Positions 57,151-64,000 of a stretch of 64,000 nt of DNA are shown piece after piece; within the stretch, counting starts at the first letter, position 1; each line of letters starts with the position of its first letter. The notes under the pieces are model-generated. The model was not told the origin of the DNA. It searched no databases and saw nothing but the letters and a program-made list of their open reading frames with translations. The stretch is from Eubacteriales bacterium. Lineage in GTDB: Bacteria > Bacillota > Clostridia > Oscillospirales > CAG-272. The DNA is taken from the NCBI GenBank assembly GCA_045128735.1, contig JBGVRT010000017.1, forward strand, positions 7,998 through 71,997. Reading direction: 5' to 3'. Made by a program: the position numbers and the translations under genes.

Positions 57151-57293
57151 GCCGACGGTTCAATATGTAATCTCGTGTCAAAAAGCAGGCGACAGGACTT
57201 GGGAACCTGACTTGCGGGTAGTTCAGCGGTTACGGAGCTACCGGTTTACGCAAGTCTTTCGTCTCCTGCGGAGCCGACGGTTCAATATATAAT
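57151..57293. repeat. 21-nt direct repeats flanking a 101-nt stem-loop-forming segment
   Basis: gccgacggttcaatatGtaat (57151-57171) and gccgacggttcaatatAtaat (57273-57293). Between them gacttgcg...cgcaagtc and ggtag...ctacc can pair. Confidence 0.7.
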
Positions 57294-57451
57294 TACCATA
57301 GCAATAAGAAGCGGAGGCCCTTTGTGCCTCCGCGTCTTATTGGTACGAGTGTTCATAACGAAACTACTCAAAATACTGTGCTTTACGGCATTCAAAACAT
57401 ATTCTAATCGTGCCTTGCCTATATAAAAGAGATAATGAAAGGAATATGATT

Positions 57452-57823
57452 ATGGAAAAGTACATCACTAAAAACGGCATCAAATACGAGCTTCGCGGCG
57501 AACAATACTATCCGATGCTTGAAATCTCCGAGAAAACTAACTACGAAATCGGCAAACACGGATGCCTACATCTTGACTTCATCAAGAAGCACCGTAGAGG
57601 CACGTATACCACTTTACTGACCGAAGGACGATTGAACGAACACCTACACAATATCGACGAGCAGGCACACGAACAGATCGACTTGCATATCGCACAGATG
57701 GCAAAGCGAATGGGTGTAACAGAAACCCTCAAAGCTTCTGATCCAATGCGTTGGGTACAGATGATGAATAGCATCAAGGTGAGCGCAGAAGAAATCGTTT
57801 TGCGGGAGGTGATCTACGTATGA
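57452..57823 (+). CDS. TnpV-like transposon-associated protein
   Basis: MEKYITKNGIKYELRGEQYYP...GKHG..HLDFIKKHRRGTYTTLLTEGRLNEHL resembles TnpV of clostridial mobilisable transposons, recalled from memory. The start could instead be 57446. Confidence 0.55.
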   Translation: MEKYITKNGIKYELRGEQYYPMLEISEKTNYEIGKHGCLHLDFIKKHRRGTYTTLLTEGRLNEHLHNIDEQAHEQIDLHIAQMAKRMGVTETLKASDPMRWVQMMNSIKVSAEEIVLREVIYV

Positions 57824-58101
57824 GGTCAATCCTACAAGAACTATGGCACGGAAACATATGCCCTCAAACCGATAGTCGTAGCAACTCTCCCGAAATGAAG
57901 CAGCTTATGGAATATATGGCGCGACATCACGATGACCTACTCAAAACAATGACCGACGAACAAAAGGAAATCTTTGAGAAGTTCGACGATTGTTGGAGCG
58001 AATACGCGAGCTGTGCCGAGGAAGCCATCTTTACATACGCTTTCAAATTAGGCGCACAACTGATGCTTGAAACGCAGTTACAACTCAACAAAGAGGGGTA
58101 A
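57820..58101 (+). CDS. small conserved hypothetical protein of clostridial mobile elements
   Basis: 93 aa, ATGA overlap with the upstream gene, LWHGNICPQ N-terminus. Confidence 0.5.
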   Translation: MRSILQELWHGNICPQTDSRSNSPEMKQLMEYMARHHDDLLKTMTDEQKEIFEKFDDCWSEYASCAEEAIFTYAFKLGAQLMLETQLQLNKEG

Positions 58102-58106
58102 CTGCA

Positions 58107-58460
58107 ATGCAAAAATCAACTTTTCTTATATCAGTTGGTCGGCGTATTGCGAAAGCTCGCAGGGATAGAGGATATAGCCAAGCGGTGTTAGCTGAAAAAG
58201 CCAATATTTCAATCAGTCATTTAAGCAATATCGAACGTGGGTGTAAAAGCTTAAGCGCAGAAGTGTTGCTAAAAATTGCCGAAGCTTTGCAAGTATCCGC
58301 GGATATCATATTGTTCACCGATATTCCGGGAGTGCATAAAGAAGTGGGACGAGAAATAGGCATCAACCTCAATAATTGTACTGTAAGGGAGAAAGAATTT
58401 ATTCTAAAACTCATCAAGAATATAGGTGCATTTATTACTGAGATCAAGACGGAATTTTAA
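58107..58460 (+). CDS. XRE-family helix-turn-helix transcriptional regulator
   Basis: HTH_3 pattern RRDRGYSQAVLAEKANISISHLSNIERG. Confidence 0.85.
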   Translation: MQKSTFLISVGRRIAKARRDRGYSQAVLAEKANISISHLSNIERGCKSLSAEVLLKIAEALQVSADIILFTDIPGVHKEVGREIGINLNNCTVREKEFILKLIKNIGAFITEIKTEF

Positions 58461-58649: not shown

Positions 58650-59489
58650 ATGAGAAAAATAACAACTGAAATAATGAAATCATTCAATGACTATCTGATT
58701 AACGAGGAAAAAGCGGCAGCAACCGTCAACAAGTATCTTCACGACGTAGGTGAGTTTCAAATTTGGCTTGGCGATCAAGAACTATGCAAAACGGTGGTTC
58801 TTGCTTATAAGTCATACCTTTGTGAGCGTTACGCCCCTGCCAGTGTGAATGCTGCGCTCTCATCGCTCAATAGCTTTTTCAATTTTGTGGAATGGTATGA
58901 CTTGAGGGTAAAGAATCTCAAAATTCAAAAGCAGATCTTTGCATCCACTGACAAGGAGTTGATAAAGGCTGAATATGACCGCCTTTTGCAAGCTGCGAAG
59001 CAGAAGAAAAACGAGCGTCTTTATCTCTTGATGCAGACAATCTGCTCCACGGGTATTCGTGTGTCCGAGGTACGCTATGTTACCGTAGAGGCAGTATCGC
59101 GCGGCGTTGCGGAGATCAACTGCAAGGGCAAGCGCAGACAGGTATTCTTGCCCAAGCAGCTTTGTCAAATTTTGAAGCAGTATATCAAAGAGCAGAAAAT
59201 AAAAAGCGGAGCCGTGTTCATAACGAAAAATGGCAATCCGCTCGATAGATCAAATATTTGGAGTGATATGAAGAAGCTATGTAAGGCGGCGAACGTGTCG
59301 GAGAAGAAGGTCTTTCCGCACAACCTCCGTCATCTTTTTGCACGCACTTATTACAGTTTGCAAAAGGACATTGTGCGCTTGGCTGACATCCTCGGACACA
59401 GTAGCGTGAACACGACGAGAATTTACACGATGGAAACAGGCGAGATACACCGCAGACAGATTCAAAAATTAGGGCTTTTGCGATGCTAA
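58650..59489 (+). CDS. tyrosine-type site-specific recombinase (XerC/D-size, 279 aa)
   Basis: SAM-like N-domain and catalytic R (TGIRVSE), H-x-x-R (HNLRHLF), H (GHSSV) and Y (RIYT). AGGAGG SD. Confidence 0.9.
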   Translation: MRKITTEIMKSFNDYLINEEKAAATVNKYLHDVGEFQIWLGDQELCKTVVLAYKSYLCERYAPASVNAALSSLNSFFNFVEWYDLRVKNLKIQKQIFASTDKELIKAEYDRLLQAAKQKKNERLYLLMQTICSTGIRVSEVRYVTVEAVSRGVAEINCKGKRRQVFLPKQLCQILKQYIKEQKIKSGAVFITKNGNPLDRSNIWSDMKKLCKAANVSEKKVFPHNLRHLFARTYYSLQKDIVRLADILGHSSVNTTRIYTMETGEIHRRQIQKLGLLRC

Positions 59490-59506: not shown

Positions 59507-59532
59507 CACCACATAATTCTTATTATGTGGTG
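59507..59532. repeat. left lox/dif-like recombination-site candidate (IR-L)
   Basis: caccacataattcttattatgtggtg has 10-11-bp palindromic arms around an asymmetric centre ttctta. It is the exact reverse complement of 59727-59752. Confidence 0.75.
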
Positions 59533-59556
59533 GATTTTTGGTTATTACATAAAAAC

Positions 59557-59612
59557 AAGGCGTCCACAAAAGAACGCCTTTTAGACCAATGAAAAAACTC
59601 ATTTCATTGGTC
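59557..59612. terminator. two hairpin terminators inside the IR-bounded segment
   Basis: aaggcgt-N10-acgcctt has T-runs on both strands. gaccaatgaaa-N7-tttcattggtc is followed by ACTTTTG. Confidence 0.6.
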
Positions 59613-59664
59613 ACTTTTGCTATGCCTAATTTTGTAAATTTTCATCGCCTTAATGATGAAAATA

Positions 59665-59693
59665 CTATGCATAATTGACATATGGTTTTATTT
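59665..59693 (+). promoter_or_regulatory. near-consensus sigma-A promoter inside the IR-bounded segment, facing the vWA operon
   Basis: TTGACA (59665-59670), 17 nt spacer, TGaTATAAT (59685-59693). Confidence 0.8.
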
Positions 59694-59726
59694 ATGATAT
59701 AATTTAATGTGGTAAGTTTTATCTTA

Positions 59727-59752
59727 CACCACATAATAAGAATTATGTGGTG
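59727..59752. repeat. right lox/dif-like recombination-site candidate (IR-R)
   Basis: caccacataataagaattatgtggtg has the same arms as IR-L, with centre taagaa = the reverse complement of ttctta. Confidence 0.75.
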
Positions 59753-59784: not shown

Positions 59785-60495
59785 ATGTCGCAAATGGATT
59801 TCAACAACAATTTCTTCAACGATGATATTCCCCCTATCGTAAATGCCAGTGAGCCTCACATGGCTTGTTTGTTTTTGCTCGACACATCCGGCTCAATGGG
59901 CTTTAAAGCAACCGATGGTGTTGTTCCAATTGATGCACTAAACGATGCGATGAACAGATTTAAGGCGCAGGTGTGCCAAGACGACAAAACATCCGATATC
60001 TTGGATGTTGCTATCGTAGAGTTCAACAACAGCATTAACGTTATTCAAGACTTCTCGCCCGTTGAATATATGCAGCAGGTAAATCTTGCCGCACGCGGAG
60101 GTACGTATATGGCTCCCGCCATCGAGAAGGCAATTGAAATGGTTGATGAGCGCTCTCGTTTCTACAGAAGAATGGGAACAGAACCCTACAAGCCCTGGAT
60201 CGTTATGATTAGTGACGGCGCACCGTTGGATAATATCAGTGATGTTTCAGCAAAGCTCACTTTGCTTTCTCAGTCGAATAAGCTTGCATTTTGGTCTTTG
60301 AGCCTTCCCGGTGCTGATAATAAGGTTTTGCACGAATTGTCCGGTGCAAGAGTTTTGAATCTTATCGAATATAATTTTGCAGGCTTCTTTGATTGGGTAA
60401 ATAAGAGTATGAGAGCAGTATCCGAGAGTTCTCCTGGAGAAAAGGTTATGCTTCCTCCCGCAAATGAAGCAATTACTCTCGACCAGTTAGGATAA
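59785..60495 (+). CDS. von Willebrand factor A (vWA) domain protein, TerY-like
   Basis: Start at MSQMDF with AGGAG SD 9 nt upstream. MIDAS motif LFLLDTSGSMG, later T and D residues (GGTYMAPA, MISDG). Confidence 0.85.
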   Translation: MSQMDFNNNFFNDDIPPIVNASEPHMACLFLLDTSGSMGFKATDGVVPIDALNDAMNRFKAQVCQDDKTSDILDVAIVEFNNSINVIQDFSPVEYMQQVNLAARGGTYMAPAIEKAIEMVDERSRFYRRMGTEPYKPWIVMISDGAPLDNISDVSAKLTLLSQSNKLAFWSLSLPGADNKVLHELSGARVLNLIEYNFAGFFDWVNKSMRAVSESSPGEKVMLPPANEAITLDQLG

Positions 60496-60502
60496 TAGAA
60501 CC

Positions 60503-61636
60503 ATGATGTATTCATACGGAACAACACAGCAAGGTCCATATCACGTTCAAAAGAATATTGTCTGTCAAGATTTTCATTACATAAGAAAGGTATCCGAGGA
60601 TTGCGTGATTGCCGCCGTTGCCGATGGTTTGGGAAGTGAATCTCATTCCGACGTGGCTTCGAAAATTGCGGCAACCGAATCCGTTGAATATTGCGTTGCC
60701 AATCTTTCGCCTGAATTGACCGAAGAAAATGTTTTGCAAGTGATTTCGGATTCCTTTATGCACGCATTGCAAAAGATTACGGACGAAGTTGCAAAAGAAA
60801 ATGGCGATATCAATCAATATGATACCACTTTGTGTCTTGCTATTTATAAAGGAAGCACTGTATATTTTGGTCAATCGGGTGACAGCGGCGCTATCATTTT
60901 GTGTAAAGACGGACATTACGAGGGCATAACCAAACAGCAACGCGACGAAAACGGTTGCGTTTTTCCGCTTGCTTTTGGCAAAGAAAAATGGGAGTTTGGA
61001 TCAAAATCCGATGTGGCGAGTTTATTGCTTGCGACCGACGGAATGCTTGAAATTTTCTTTCCCGTACTCTTGCACTCGGAAAAAGTAAATATTTACGTTG
61101 CATTGGCTCAATTCTTTATGGATAATCTCTCCTTAAAGTTTGACGAAACCGGAGAGCAAGCCGTTGGGGAGAAAATGACCGCTTTTGTTCAAAATATCCC
61201 CGAAAAGCAGGTCAATGATGACAAAACGGTACTTGTTATTGTAAACGGTTCGATCAAACCAGAGCGTTTGGAGGATTCCTATTATCAAGTTCCAAATTGG
61301 TTAGAGCTTCAAAAGAAACGCCAAGAGGAATTTAATCGCCTTGCATATCCACATTTGTATGCGAAAGAAAAGGTAGAGGAAGCTAAAACAACTGAAACTG
61401 CTACATCTGAAGTAACCGAACAATCAGACGAAGCAAACAACACTTCTGAGGAAATCGCAAAATCCGAAGAAGCCAAAAACGAGAAAAAGGATGACGGTGT
61501 GGATACAGTCACTTCTTCCGATACCGAAACAATCGAAAAAAAGGTAGAGGAGAAAAAAGAACCCTCGGGAGAAAAATCACCAAAGATCCTTCAGCAGATC
61601 ACCTCTATTTTCAAACCTAAAGCAAAGAAGGAATAA
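60503..61636 (+). CDS. PP2C-family Ser/Thr protein phosphatase with acidic low-complexity C-terminal tail
   Basis: QD.... ... AVADGLGS and LLLATDGM motifs. The last ~110 aa are E/K/T/S-rich. Confidence 0.8.
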   Translation: MMYSYGTTQQGPYHVQKNIVCQDFHYIRKVSEDCVIAAVADGLGSESHSDVASKIAATESVEYCVANLSPELTEENVLQVISDSFMHALQKITDEVAKENGDINQYDTTLCLAIYKGSTVYFGQSGDSGAIILCKDGHYEGITKQQRDENGCVFPLAFGKEKWEFGSKSDVASLLLATDGMLEIFFPVLLHSEKVNIYVALAQFFMDNLSLKFDETGEQAVGEKMTAFVQNIPEKQVNDDKTVLVIVNGSIKPERLEDSYYQVPNWLELQKKRQEEFNRLAYPHLYAKEKVEEAKTTETATSEVTEQSDEANNTSEEIAKSEEAKNEKKDDGVDTVTSSDTETIEKKVEEKKEPSGEKSPKILQQITSIFKPKAKKE

Positions 61637-61641
61637 TTGCT

Positions 61642-64000
61642 ATGACCTACTATGGTGCTAACAGAAAAACGTACATATTAGACGACATACCGATAAAAAA
61701 AGGTGGAGAGGGTGCAATTCACACGGTGTCGGGCAAGTCAAATCTGCTTGCTAAAATTTATCTTGCGCCCGCAAAATCTCCCGAACTGAAAGAAAAGATT
61801 TCTTTGATGGTGAAGAACCCTCCCCGTCAAGATATTCTCGACCAGATTGCGTGGCCGATTGATATCCTTTCCGACGCGGGCGGAAACTTCGTCGGTTTCG
61901 TTATGCCCAAGCTGTCGATTGATGTGGAGCTTGGTGACGTATATAAATACCCTGCCAAGAAGAAGGTTACACTTACCGGCGAGCAGAAAGTTATCATAGC
62001 AATCAATATCTGTCGCGTTATTTCCGCAATTCACGATTTGGATTATGTATTCGGTGATTTTAACCCTTGTAATATCGGTGTTAATTTGACTAACGGACAC
62101 GTTGCGTTCCTCGATACCGACTCTTATCATATTACTGACAAAGCAAAAGGTAAAACCTATCGTTGCAACGTGTGCTTGAACGGATATGTTGCGCCTGAGC
62201 TTATTAAGAAGTGTAAGAACGCGGGATATGCGCAAGCTCCGCTTCCGACGTTCACCAAGGAAACCGACTTGTTCTCGCTTGCCATTCATATTTTCAAGCT
62301 TTTGATGAATGGTTTCACACCATACAATGGTATTCCCGAGGGAGAACGTTCTTCGACTGCATCTCCCGGTGTTGGTAATGCCGCAATTGAAATGGATCAC
62401 TATTGCTTCAAATCGGGCAATAGACCTTTGAGCGTTGCCGTTTTGCCATTGCAGTCGTTCCCGAGTGATATTCAGACGCTATTTACAAGGGCTTTTGATG
62501 AAGGACATAAGAATCCAAGCAAACGTCCGAGTGCTAAGGAATGGGATGCAGCATTGACTAAATATCATTCTTATTTGAAGCAATGCAACGCAAATCCTAA
62601 ACATCACTATTATTGTGAATTGTCGAGTTGCCCTTACTGCGAAGCCGATCAGCGATATACCTTCACAATGAGCATGAATTCGGTATATGGTACGTCCTCT
62701 GGCTCACCCTCTTCGAGTCAGATGAGTTTTTCGCAACCGATGACACCTCCGCCCCCCGCTTCTTCCTCTAAAAGCAATATACCTTCCTCGTATTCGGGAA
62801 GCGGACAATATTCGGGTTCTGTTTTGTCGGGTGGAAATTCGTCTGCCAATGTTTCGCAAAGAAACACGAATGGCTTTTCTAAAAAGATGAAGAAAGGAAT
62901 AATCGGGGCAATTATCGCTGCGATTCTTTTCAGTCTTCTGTTTGCTTTCGTCATTTGGCCTAATGCGATATATCCTAACTTAACAACCGATGACCTGTAT
63001 ACGCCTCAAATTGTTCGAGTTTATAGTGGAACATACTCGGCCGATTCGATGAGCGGACAAGCGACTATAACTATTTCTTCATGTGATAAATACGGAAACA
63101 TATCAGGATTTTTTGAATTTGTTTCCAATAATCAATATGGTAAATATGCAATAGAAGGTAAAATCATTCAAAAGAAGAACAACGGTGACGTAGTTCTTTC
63201 TGTTGAAGCGGGTGATTGGATCACACATCCTGAAGATTTTATACCATTGAGTACAATGAATATAGAGATTTACGATCAATATCAATCATTTGAATGTAGT
63301 CAGTATAAAATTGATTGGAGTGATGATAAATATGGGATGCCCGTGCTGTTATCTGCCGCAGAAGATCTGAAGCAATTGGAAGGATCTTCCGACACGTTTA
63401 TTTTAACAAACGATATAGTTCTTTCAAGTCAAGATAATTGGGAGACGATAAAGTCCTTCTCAGGAAAACTTTATGGTAATGGTCATTCCATAAAAAACTT
63501 AACTGTAAAAAAGCACTTGACATCAGACAATAATACTTGCGCCTTTATTAGCACGCTGAAAACAGGTGCGCTGATTAGTGATCTTGATTTTGAAGATATC
63601 AATATTTCTGTTACCGGCGGAGATGGATTTTTACTTGGAGGAATCGTAGAAACCTCTTACGGCACAATTGTGAATTGTACTATAAAAAGTGGTTCTATAT
63701 CGGTTGAGAATTCCTATGTCGGTTCAATTTGTGGATCTTTGGGCGGGACGGAAGAAGGGGTTGCTACGATCCGAAATTGCGCAAATTATGCTGAAATCAA
63801 AAGCAAAACACTCAACGGTACTGCTTCCACTGGTGGCCTTGTAGGTTATTTGAATTTGGGAACCATTATTGACAGCAAAAACTACGGAATCATCAGTGGA
63901 ATTGATAACGTAGGGGGAATTGTAGGTGCTGGTCAGTATAGAAATTCAAGTATTGTAAATTCGGAAAATCACGGCATTGTTCTTGGCACCACTAATATCG
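61642..64000 (+). CDS. Ser/Thr protein kinase - zinc ribbon - TM - extracellular GLUG-repeat protein (5' part; continues beyond the window)
   Basis: I translated 786 codons by hand with no stop. Kinase motifs are G-loop KKGGEGAIH, LAKIY, catalytic IHDLDYVFGDFNPCNI, FLDTDS and YVAPE. It then has CNANPKHHYYCELSSCPYC, an S/P-rich linker, the TM segment IIGAIIAAILFSLLFAFVIW, and GGIVE...NC / TGGLVGY / VGGIVGAG repeats. It is not in the ORF track because no stop lies within the window. Confidence 0.85.
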   Translation, partial: MTYYGANRKTYILDDIPIKKGGEGAIHTVSGKSNLLAKIYLAPAKSPELKEKISLMVKNPPRQDILDQIAWPIDILSDAGGNFVGFVMPKLSIDVELGDVYKYPAKKKVTLTGEQKVIIAINICRVISAIHDLDYVFGDFNPCNIGVNLTNGHVAFLDTDSYHITDKAKGKTYRCNVCLNGYVAPELIKKCKNAGYAQAPLPTFTKETDLFSLAIHIFKLLMNGFTPYNGIPEGERSSTASPGVGNAAIEMDHYCFKSGNRPLSVAVLPLQSFPSDIQTLFTRAFDEGHKNPSKRPSAKEWDAALTKYHSYLKQCNANPKHHYYCELSSCPYCEADQRYTFTMSMNSVYGTSSGSPSSSQMSFSQPMTPPPPASSSKSNIPSSYSGSGQYSGSVLSGGNSSANVSQRNTNGFSKKMKKGIIGAIIAAILFSLLFAFVIWPNAIYPNLTTDDLYTPQIVRVYSGTYSADSMSGQATITISSCDKYGNISGFFEFVSNNQYGKYAIEGKIIQKKNNGDVVLSVEAGDWITHPEDFIPLSTMNIEIYDQYQSFECSQYKIDWSDDKYGMPVLLSAAEDLKQLEGSSDTFILTNDIVLSSQDNWETIKSFSGKLYGNGHSIKNLTVKKHLTSDNNTCAFISTLKTGALISDLDFEDINISVTGGDGFLLGGIVETSYGTIVNCTIKSGSISVENSYVGSICGSLGGTEEGVATIRNCANYAEIKSKTLNGTASTGGLVGYLNLGTIIDSKNYGIISGIDNVGGIVGAGQYRNSSIVNSENHGIVLGTTNI

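Follow-up and report, generated by a model that had tools for sequence, protein, structure and literature searches.

A TerY-P-Type vWA, PP2C, and Kinase Operon behind a Putative Promoter Inverton in an Eubacteriales Bacterium

The right end of a 64,000-nt stretch of DNA from Eubacteriales bacterium (CAG-272; assembly GCA_045128735.1, contig JBGVRT010000017.1, positions 7,998-71,997), termed here the window, encodes (i) a vWA protein, (ii) a PP2C phosphatase, and (iii) the first part of a Ser/Thr kinase with a predicted membrane helix. Immediately upstream lie the gene of a Xer-like tyrosine recombinase and a pair of inverted repeats that enclose a promoter (Table 1). All coordinates are window positions, and the right edge at 64000 falls inside the kinase gene. 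Triads of this kind, known as TerY-P or YegLKI, are widespread, with their biochemistry coming from E. coli, and the main interest of the operon is as an entry point to this family.

The three genes are co-directional and are separated by gaps of 7 nt (60496-60502, vWA-PP2C) and 5 nt (61637-61641, PP2C-kinase). All three proteins keep their catalytic or metal-binding residues. The vWA protein carries the residues of the metal ion-dependent adhesion site (MIDAS), D33-x-S35-x-S37, T107, and D144, each invariant in 41 of 41 orthologues, among which a Ser-rich C-terminal motif (S208, S213, S215, P217, and G218) is also conserved. The metal-binding aspartates of the phosphatase (D23, D41, D179, and D239/D240) are invariant in 42-43 of its 43 orthologues. 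Neither the vWA protein nor the phosphatase has a membrane or signal segment, and the former is predicted to be cytoplasmic. The phosphatase ends in a tail of ~90 aa (residues ~290-377; 61370-61636) that is acidic, rich in Lys and Ser/Thr, and of low complexity, with a basic amphipathic stretch (ILQQITSIFKPKAKKE) at its terminus. This tail is common to the relatives L005, L006, and L052; most orthologues are ~290 aa long and lack it.

The trio belongs, with little doubt, to the YegL-PphC-YegI / TerY-P family. Identity to the proteins of E. coli K-12 is 36% over 201 aa between the vWA protein and YegL (E 2e-33) and 32% over 333 aa between the kinase and YegI (E 5e-37), the latter alignment spanning both the kinase and a zinc-ribbon Cys/His motif. 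The match of the phosphatase to PphC is weak (25% over 124 aa, E 4e-4), and both belong to the PP2C_2 family. As defined by Anantharaman et al. 2012, in the form quoted in PMC11090510, a TerY-P triad comprises a TerY-like vWA protein, a PP2C phosphatase, and a Ser/Thr kinase that carries a zinc ribbon fused at its C-terminus. The window has all three: a MIDAS vWA protein, a PP2C gene in the same operon, and a kinase-zinc-ribbon fusion. A first-pass annotation of the same DNA had proposed a TerY-P-type trio of three tightly spaced co-directional genes, with gaps of 7 and 5 nt and a TerY-like vWA protein with an intact MIDAS, placed directly behind a putative invertible promoter. Spacing, MIDAS residues, and family relationship all agree with the data above, and the promoter with those given below.

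The E. coli proteins are the closest biochemical reference. YegI passes through the inner membrane twice and is an active kinase that autophosphorylates with second-order kinetics (10.1101/819920), and PphC dephosphorylates YegI (10.1101/303594). Neither study (10.1101/819920, 10.1101/303594) reports a substrate or a phenotype. The two triads share homologous vWA and kinase-zinc-ribbon proteins, a PP2C_2 phosphatase, the same gene order, and a membrane-bound kinase. They differ at the promoter, as no inverton is described for the E. coli triad (the locus itself was not looked at here), in contrast to the one at the window triad.

A genome scan with the kinase alignment returned 47 loci from other genomes; handles in the range L005-L052 denote loci of relatives. 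A collinear vWA-PP2C-(0 to 6.3 kb)-kinase order is found in ~40 of the 47, a recurrence that argues against a chance arrangement.

Two side observations concern the distribution of these genes. At L020, L023, L030, L036, and L048, a single vWA-PP2C operon encodes two or more paralogous YegI-type receptor kinases in tandem. Among contigs assigned by binning to gut or termite archaea (Methanobacteriota, Thermoplasmata, and Methanomethylophilaceae), L032 and L048 carry triads and L049 carries tandem YegI-type kinases, which reflects either horizontal transfer from Clostridia or mis-binning.

The kinase scores 27 bits against Pfam Pkinase (E 3.5e-6), under the gathering score of 31.7, and is therefore considered atypical. 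E. coli YegI is likewise atypical and falls under the Pkinase cut-off, yet it is biochemically active. Across 22 kinase homologues, YegI included, G21-G22-E23-G24, K38, D139, D158, P185-E186, and R295 are invariant, as are the zinc-ribbon ligands C315, H321, C330, and C333; N144 is nearly so. The protein has one strongly hydrophobic segment, followed by at least 345 aa within the window, and is predicted to be a single-pass protein whose N-terminus and kinase domain are cytoplasmic. In this it differs from YegI, which spans the membrane twice, has both ends in the cytosol, lacks an extracytoplasmic domain, and carries a cytosolic C-terminal region in place of the large ectodomain. JGI names one protein of the family ‘DNA-binding helix-hairpin-helix protein with protein kinase domain’, which suggests that this C-terminal region of YegI is a helix-hairpin-helix domain. 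Among the best 120 homologues of the window kinase, 118 have a membrane-like segment after the zinc ribbon, with a median length of 350 aa beyond it. The clade is large: among 1.84 billion representative proteins, it accounts for 1,582 cluster representatives at E up to 1e-30.

The ectodomain was modeled with AlphaFold2 from a 9-sequence alignment, with a mean model confidence (pLDDT) of 79.8. Compared with the PDB, the only significant matches of the model, all with low TM-scores, are to IgA1 proteases from streptococci and Gemella (E 9.5e-7 to 7e-4), and sequence searches of the PDB returned no solved relative of the kinase or the ectodomain. The full-length kinase of L052, which has the ectodomain type of the window, matches Glug below threshold (E 0.0076) and Laminin_G_2 significantly. 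Other homologues carry BspA-type LRR, LRR_8, NPCBM-associated, SH3_3, RCC1, DUF6273, or FGE-sulfatase domains beyond the kinase, and Big domains occur in relatives as well. The kinases of the window and L005 are 87% identical over residues 1-431 and near-identical over the first 240. Their similarity ends inside the membrane helix, beyond which a GLUG beta-helix in the window and a BspA-type LRR domain in L005 are unrelated. Judged from these comparisons, the ectodomain is exchanged wholesale between relatives, with the kinase and zinc-ribbon module conserved.

The upstream region has the features of an invertible promoter. The presumed invertase resembles XerA/XerD-type recombinases (NCBIfam E 1e-37 to 1e-39, all below the equivalog cut-offs). 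The repeat motif has these two copies and no others in the window, where chance alone would give 0.01, and its 11-4-11 layout is that of a tyrosine-recombinase core site, with the two putative sites in inverted orientation. Between the recombinase and vWA genes, no other site reaches 10 of 12 promoter matches. The 32 nt between the right repeat and the vWA start codon carry the ribosome-binding site and no promoter-like site. As the promoter within the segment faces the vWA gene, the switch is taken to be ON in the window. The left junction reads ATTATGTGGTG|GATTTTTGG in the ON state and would read ATTATGTGGTG|TAAGATAAAAC in the OFF state.

Relatives of the switch lie at other triads. A homologous recombinase (61-95% identity) is encoded directly upstream of the vWA gene in five triad loci (L005, L006, L009, L013, and L017), each with a 24-26-nt repeat pair around 198-258 bp. 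The arms are of the ACCACATAAT type in L005, L006, L009, and L013 and divergent in L017. The cores of the former four vary between loci and are complementary within each locus. The perfect promoter faces the vWA gene in L005, L013, and the window and faces away from it in L006. The segments of L005 and L006 are 92.9% identical as reverse complements versus 55.7% when read forward, and their flanks are collinear with 78-94% identity. The segment of L006 is thus flipped relative to those of L005 and the window between collinear flanks, which is direct evidence of inversion in nature, between related metagenome-assembled genomes.

The element of the window is itself carried in the samples SRR25030051, SRR25030057, and SRR25030128. 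Exact-protein look-ups returned three or four short Logan contigs, all of which are ON or end at a repeat. Of these contigs of the window's own element, L002 starts inside the left repeat (1-30) and L004 ends 4 nt after it (1600-1646). The Logan assembler uses a k-mer of k=31. A 26-nt repeat is shorter than this, so a single orientation should not break a contig at the repeat, and the breaks may reflect mixed ON and OFF populations in the samples.

The hairpin at 59584-59612, GACCAATG(A/C)...loop...CATTGGTC, also occurs in L005, L006, L009, L013, L095, and L137. It is kept where the recombinase is at least 67% identical to that of the window, even if the rest of the segment has diverged, and, of 35 more distant sister switches, 33 lack it. 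Possible roles are that of a bidirectional terminator and that of a site bound by an accessory factor.

Taken together, the repeats, the 12/12 promoter, and the occurrence of the segment in both orientations across two relatives make phase-variable control of the operon very likely. The arrangement resembles the invertible promoters of gut bacteria, such as C. difficile cmrRST and the Bacteroides promoter invertons, in having short inverted repeats around a promoter and a site-specific recombinase that is adjacent or controlling. A signal-transduction system that is phase-variable has a precedent in C. difficile cmrRST (PMC8844915). Differences from the known gut invertons are (i) the cargo, which here is a module of eukaryotic-like Ser/Thr kinase, PP2C, and vWA protein, and (ii) the recombinase and its dif-like 11-4-11 core sites, which form a family of their own.

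Table 1. Positions of the switch, the triad, and the neighboring genes in the window
Feature	Position	Strand	Details
Left inverted repeat	59507..59532	.	CACCACATAAT-TCTT-ATTATGTGGTG; two 11-nt arms, asymmetric 4-nt core
Invertible segment, 194 bp	59533..59726	.	Promoter and two back-to-back terminator-like hairpins, 59557-59580 and 59584-59612
Sigma-70 promoter TTGACA-17-TATAAT, TG extended -10	59675..59703	+	12/12 consensus; faces vWA
Right inverted repeat	59727..59752	.	CACCACATAAT-AAGA-ATTATGTGGTG; 26 nt, 100% complementary to left repeat
vWA gene	59785-60495	+	236 aa, ATG at 59785; AAGGAG ribosome-binding site 9 nt upstream of ATG; Pfam VWA_2 E 3e-8
PP2C gene	60503-61636	+	377 aa; Pfam PP2C_2 E 6e-21
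Ser/Thr kinase gene	61642 to beyond 64000	+	ATG at 61642, open at window end; 786 aa within window
Predicted cytoplasmic YegI-type Ser/Thr kinase domain (residues 1 to ~313) and zinc ribbon C-x5-H-x8-C-x2-C (residues 315-333)	61642..62640	+	
Ser/Pro/Gly-rich low-complexity linker, predicted cytoplasmic, KKMKK at end	62641..62895	+	Translation
Predicted single transmembrane helix, residues 419-441	62896..62964	+	Mean Kyte-Doolittle 3.0; KKMKK precedes
Predicted extracellular domain, cut at window end: beta-barrel or beta-sandwich, then GLUG-type beta-helix	62965..64000	+	AlphaFold2
Xer-like tyrosine recombinase gene, presumed invertase	58650..59489	+	279 aa; Phage_integrase E 5e-30; stop 17 nt before left repeat
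Xre-type helix-turn-helix regulator gene, 5′ of recombinase	58107..58460	+	Pfam HTH_3 E 7e-15
DUF6809 gene	57820..58101	+	Pfam DUF6809 E 1e-25
TnpV-family gene	57410..57823	+	Pfam TnpV E 5e-38; mobile-element marker, left edge of low-GC island

The recombinase and repeat module is a general switch family, of which the triad is one cargo. A scan of metagenome contigs for ACCACATAAYNNNNRTTATGTGGT yielded at least 120 loci (L054-L173); the family is defined by the repeat motif ACCACATAAY-N4-RTTATGTGGT and an adjacent Xer-like recombinase. A homologue of the window recombinase (42-80% identity) adjoins the site at most of the loci listed, and many have two sites 180-290 bp apart. At L089, L090, L095, and L137, perfect promoters face back at the recombinase, an arrangement that is hard to explain unless the segment flips. 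No triad is found among the matches listed. Cargo was sampled at six of these loci and includes (i) DUF7601, FctA, or SpaA pilin/isopeptide-domain proteins with sortase-type sorting motifs near the C-terminus, as read from the sequences, (ii) Eco57I/MmeI-type DNA methylases, (iii) a TetR regulator, and (iv) a transglutaminase-core protein whose signal sequence is lipoprotein-like. Functions of this kind are typical of phase-variable genes. The module represents a general promoter-inverton family of gut Firmicutes, which is also found in other metagenomes.

One metagenomic locus, L130, has at 100-450 nested repeats of two types round a single promoter segment, namely CTACATAATCGAAATTATGTTGCAGGC with CTGCATAATTTCGATTATGTTGCAGGC and, in addition, a CACCACATAATTTCGATTATGTGGT site. 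This nesting hints at a multi-state switch.

In the relatives, the genes that follow the kinase extend the operon. L005 encodes a 1198-aa FtsK/EssC-like ATPase (FtsK_SpoIIIE E 3e-21; EssC model E 1e-18, far below the cut-off), followed by overlapping open reading frames of 93 and 108 aa and then by proteins of 318 and 161 aa, neither of which has a Pfam domain assignment. In L052, the FtsK-like ATPase has 1224 aa and is accompanied by two proteins of 87 and 95 aa, by one of 216 aa that matches WXG100 below threshold (E 0.013), and by a transglutaminase-core protein. In L027, a 1186-aa ATPase similar to that of L005 is sited between phosphatase and kinase, and a small reading frame after it weakly resembles the 93-aa protein of L005. 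L006 matches the N-terminal 327 aa of the L005 ATPase alone, and L008 has an ATPase alone. L009 and L013, both of which have the switch, encode a ~1030-aa ATPase of the HerA/DUF87 type and a Big_2 protein that has a membrane helix at its C-terminus. An FtsK/HerA-superfamily ATPase lies downstream of the kinase in all of the closest relatives whose contigs are long enough (L005, L006, L052, L009, and L013).

The best NCBIfam matches of ATPases in relatives are to EssC/EccC models (E 1e-18 to 4e-24), at 66-84 bits versus an equivalog cut-off of 778. No membrane helix is predicted in the ATPases of L005, L013, and L027, and borderline hydrophobic segments are present in those of L052 and L009. 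The matches of the small helical proteins to WXG100/ESAT-6 are all subthreshold (E 0.004-0.02), and no YukD-like protein was detected in the cassettes of the relatives. The first-pass annotation had taken the triad as the cargo of the switch. The triad does lie behind it, but the cargo is probably longer than the triad, given the ATPase genes after the kinase in L005, L052, L009, and L013.

A cassette of this kind is described beside TerY-like vWA genes in PMC11090510. It comprises an EssC-like ATPase that has a long N-terminal coiled coil instead of membrane helices and FHA domains, together with a pair of WXG100 proteins, a coiled-coil effector fusion, and a small partner. The association of the triad with WXG and FtsK is credited, in PMC4978471 and PMC11090510, to Anantharaman et al. 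2012. The likeness covers (i) the make-up of the triad, including the kinase-zinc-ribbon fusion, (ii) the EssC-like ATPase of the relatives, with its long coiled-coil N-terminus and no clear membrane helix or FHA domain, and (iii) the two small helical proteins, larger effector candidate, and small partner protein encoded after it. Within the same sources, the effector candidates differ: a transglutaminase-core protein in L052 and the 318-aa protein in L005, as opposed to D-ExK nucleases. The cassettes considered here also lack a McrBC/CoCoNuT context, their kinase has a membrane helix and ectodomain, and the operon is under inverton control, features that set them apart from the published cassette as far as it is described there.

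The window is read as the 5′ part of a phase-variable operon for a TerY-P / YegL-PphC-YegI-type phosphosignaling triad with a sensing-to-effector role, a reading that has somewhat better than even chances as a whole. The sensing-to-effector model taken by itself falls a little short of an even chance. The ectodomain would bind an external ligand or surface, and binding would activate the kinase, probably through oligomerization and autophosphorylation as in YegI. The kinase would then phosphorylate a cytoplasmic partner, for which the vWA protein, with its conserved C-terminal Ser motif, and/or the ATPase encoded downstream are the leading candidates. The MIDAS site may mediate phosphorylation-dependent assembly, and the PP2C phosphatase would reset the kinase, as PphC does for YegI. 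The output, drawn from the relatives alone, would be an EssC/FtsK-like ATPase that has a coiled coil at its N-terminus, lacks a clear membrane helix, and deploys small helical proteins and an effector candidate. Its partners in the cassette, again taken solely from relatives, would be the transglutaminase-core protein (L052) or the 318-aa protein (L005) and the small partner protein. Such a cassette may serve effector deployment in interbacterial conflict or defense, and inversion would restrict a surface-exposed and costly apparatus to part of the population.

Several points weigh against this interpretation. With regard to the switch, both orientations are known from two related metagenome-assembled genomes, inversion within a single strain or sample has not been observed, and near-identical metagenomic copies of sister switches all have the same orientation, with no inverted pair found among them. 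With regard to the output, the window ends before the ATPase and small-helical-protein part, which is seen only in some relatives (L005, L052, and L027, partially in L006, and as an ATPase alone in L008). L009 and L013 have the HerA/DUF87-type ATPase and Big_2 protein instead of an EssC-like cassette, and the small proteins match the WXG100/ESAT-6 models only below threshold. The ATPases have no predicted membrane helix (L005, L013, and L027) or only borderline hydrophobic segments (L052 and L009) and so offer no evident route across the membrane. Finally, no substrate, ligand, or phenotype is reported for any member of the family, E. coli included.

A more specific and rather doubtful version of the sensing-to-effector reading is an inverton-gated receptor kinase. 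Its hypervariable adhesin-like ectodomain (GLUG beta-helix, BspA-type LRR, NPCBM, SH3, RCC1, and others) would recognize a specific external target, for example a competitor cell, a host glycan, or an adsorbing phage, and, via a phospho-switch of YegI-type kinase, PP2C, and MIDAS vWA protein, license an EssC-like ATPase that lacks clear membrane helices to deploy WXG100-like helical effectors. If true, gut Clostridia would have a conflict system of a new kind that senses contact, and the long-orphan YegL-PphC-YegI / TerY-P family would gain its first physiological role. The operon offers experimental handles in the form of (i) a natural ON/OFF switch that would give isogenic expressing and silent populations, (ii) a modular extracellular domain that points to an external ligand, and, in relatives, (iii) a defined downstream cassette of ATPase and effector candidates as the likely output.

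Individually, the triad, the link to an FtsK/WXG cassette, membrane-bound triad kinases, and promoter invertons are already known. As far as the literature consulted shows, inverton control of such a triad appears to be new, as do a large clostridial clade of YegI-type receptor kinases with swapped ectodomains and the effector candidates of the relatives, unlike the nuclease fusions of the CoCoNuT context. The first-pass annotation had suggested that the triad may be a distinct variant by virtue of two unusual features, of which the inverton control appears to stand as new. The other, a membrane kinase with an extracellular domain, is not: E. coli YegI is membrane-bound, and a single-pass kinase with an extracellular domain is described for T7SSc in PMC11217815. 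The same annotation had linked the trio to the TerY-P defense system of Gao et al. 2020, a membership that the PADLOC comparison does not bear out. The vWA protein matches TerY at 17.3 bits over a partial stretch, PADLOC returned no match for the phosphatase and no match to a TerY-P kinase model for the kinase, and the NCBIfam matches are solely generic and below cut-off. E. coli YegL, PphC, and YegI, used as a control, likewise fail the TerY-P models, which argues that the models are narrow and that the negative does not decide membership.

Among the alternatives, an unlikely one is a stand-alone anti-phage defense of the Gao et al. 2020 type. Infection would be sensed, possibly at the surface via the ectodomain, kinase signaling would lead to growth arrest or abortive infection, and phase variation would limit the cost. 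The three domain classes are indeed the same (PMC7699616, PMC11090510), the site is a low-GC mobile island, sister switches control restriction-modification methylases, and the kinase has weak PADLOC matches to the kinase-based defense proteins mad6 and PD-T4-6 (E ~2e-5) as well as to MkoA. The PADLOC TerY-P models, however, recognize neither the window nor the E. coli triad beyond the partial 17-bit match to TerY. The kinase of the defense version is fused to a C-terminal OB fold, according to PMC11090510; in the window kinase, the zinc ribbon is followed instead by the low-complexity linker, the membrane helix, and the beta-helix ectodomain. Moreover, the recurrent partners are FtsK/HerA-superfamily ATPases and small helical proteins rather than nucleases or other known defense genes, and a search of 2.9 million viral contigs (IMG/VR) found no relatives of the kinase. 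The Gao et al. 2020 system is anti-phage, whereas no phage phenotype is reported for the lineage of the window.

Less probable still is that the trio represents TscE, TscF, and TscD of a T7SSc-type type VII secretion system, in which they would serve, as core components or regulators, an EssC machine embedded in the membrane and exporting WXG100 proteins and LXG-like toxins. T7SSc (TscA-G of Bacillota; Garrett et al. 2024) is defined, in PMC11217815, by a vWA protein in the cytoplasm, a PPM phosphatase, and a kinase that crosses the membrane once, with an N-terminal cytoplasmic kinase domain and, as described, an extracellular domain; the window trio matches in architecture. The T7SSc proteins are encoded, by the same description, with an FtsK-family ATPase and WXG100-like genes, and the ATPases of the relatives have EssC/EccC models as their best matches. 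Those matches nonetheless reach only 66-84 bits against the cut-off of 778, and the likeness to TscD, TscE, and TscF considered here is one of architecture. TscC has two membrane helices, compared with none or borderline segments in the relatives. T7SSc also comprises the WXG100 protein TscA, the YukD-like TscB, and the EspG-like TscG; in the relatives, no counterpart of TscB was detected, and the WXG100 matches are subthreshold. Phase variation is not mentioned in the available portion of PMC11217815. A vWA-PP2C pair on a Lysinibacillus plasmid was considered as a T7SSc reference and set aside for its different arrangement.

Equally improbable is a self-contained envelope or adhesion signaling pair, comparable to PrkC/StkP-type receptor kinases and their PP2C phosphatases, in which the ectodomain is an adhesin or sensor, the vWA protein is a scaffold, and no effector cassette exists. 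The ectodomains are adhesin-like, with a GLUG beta-helix that resembles IgA1 protease in the window and BspA-type LRR, SH3_3, NPCBM, and Big domains in relatives, and the sampled sister switches mostly drive adhesins and pilins. Many triad loci also lack an FtsK-like gene in tblastn searches with the L005 ATPase; these searches missed the divergent HerA-type ATPases of L009 and L013, so this absence is not firm. Against a self-contained pair stand the ATPases downstream of the kinase in all five of the closest relatives named above and the strict coupling with a MIDAS vWA protein and a zinc ribbon, which is specific to the TerY-P family and is not seen with PASTA-type kinases.

The remaining alternative, in which the recombinase and repeats are the integration or resolution machinery of a mobile island and the operon is constitutive, is scarcely credible: the recombinase is Xer-like, each repeat resembles a dif-type core site, and a TnpV gene lies nearby, but the sites are inverted, with only 194 bp between them and a perfect promoter inside, unrelated cargo follows the module at many loci, and the flip of the segment between the collinear flanks of L005 and L006 led to its rejection.

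The operon and its switch lie in a region of low G+C content (0.40-0.43 across 58-64 kb versus 0.44-0.51 in the remaining window), with the drop beginning after ~58 kb. This drop, together with the TnpV, DUF6809, and helix-turn-helix genes at its start, makes an island a reasonable reading, in keeping with the initial placement of the triad on one. The order DUF6809-helix-turn-helix-recombinase is the same in L005 and L006. The helix-turn-helix gene is 85% identical in these two loci and is also present in L004; its product could be an accessory factor or regulator of the switch. Rfam and tRNA scans of the window found nothing, and carriage of the element by phage was rejected on the basis of the zero count in IMG/VR.

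Two further observations concern the left side of this unit. A large serine recombinase with Resolvase, Recombinase, and Zn_ribbon_recom domains is encoded in L005 (4170-5810, minus strand) just upstream of the DUF6809-helix-turn-helix-recombinase block, which supports the carriage of the whole unit on an integrative mobile element. In the window, a 21-nt direct repeat, GCCGACGGTTCAATAT(G/A)TAAT, occurs at 57151-57171 and 57273-57293, with 20 of 21 positions identical and the copies 122 nt apart. It lies at the low-GC island's left edge, with TnpV on one side and a minus-strand gene for a 993-aa protein on the other, and may be an insertion junction or a regulatory repeat.

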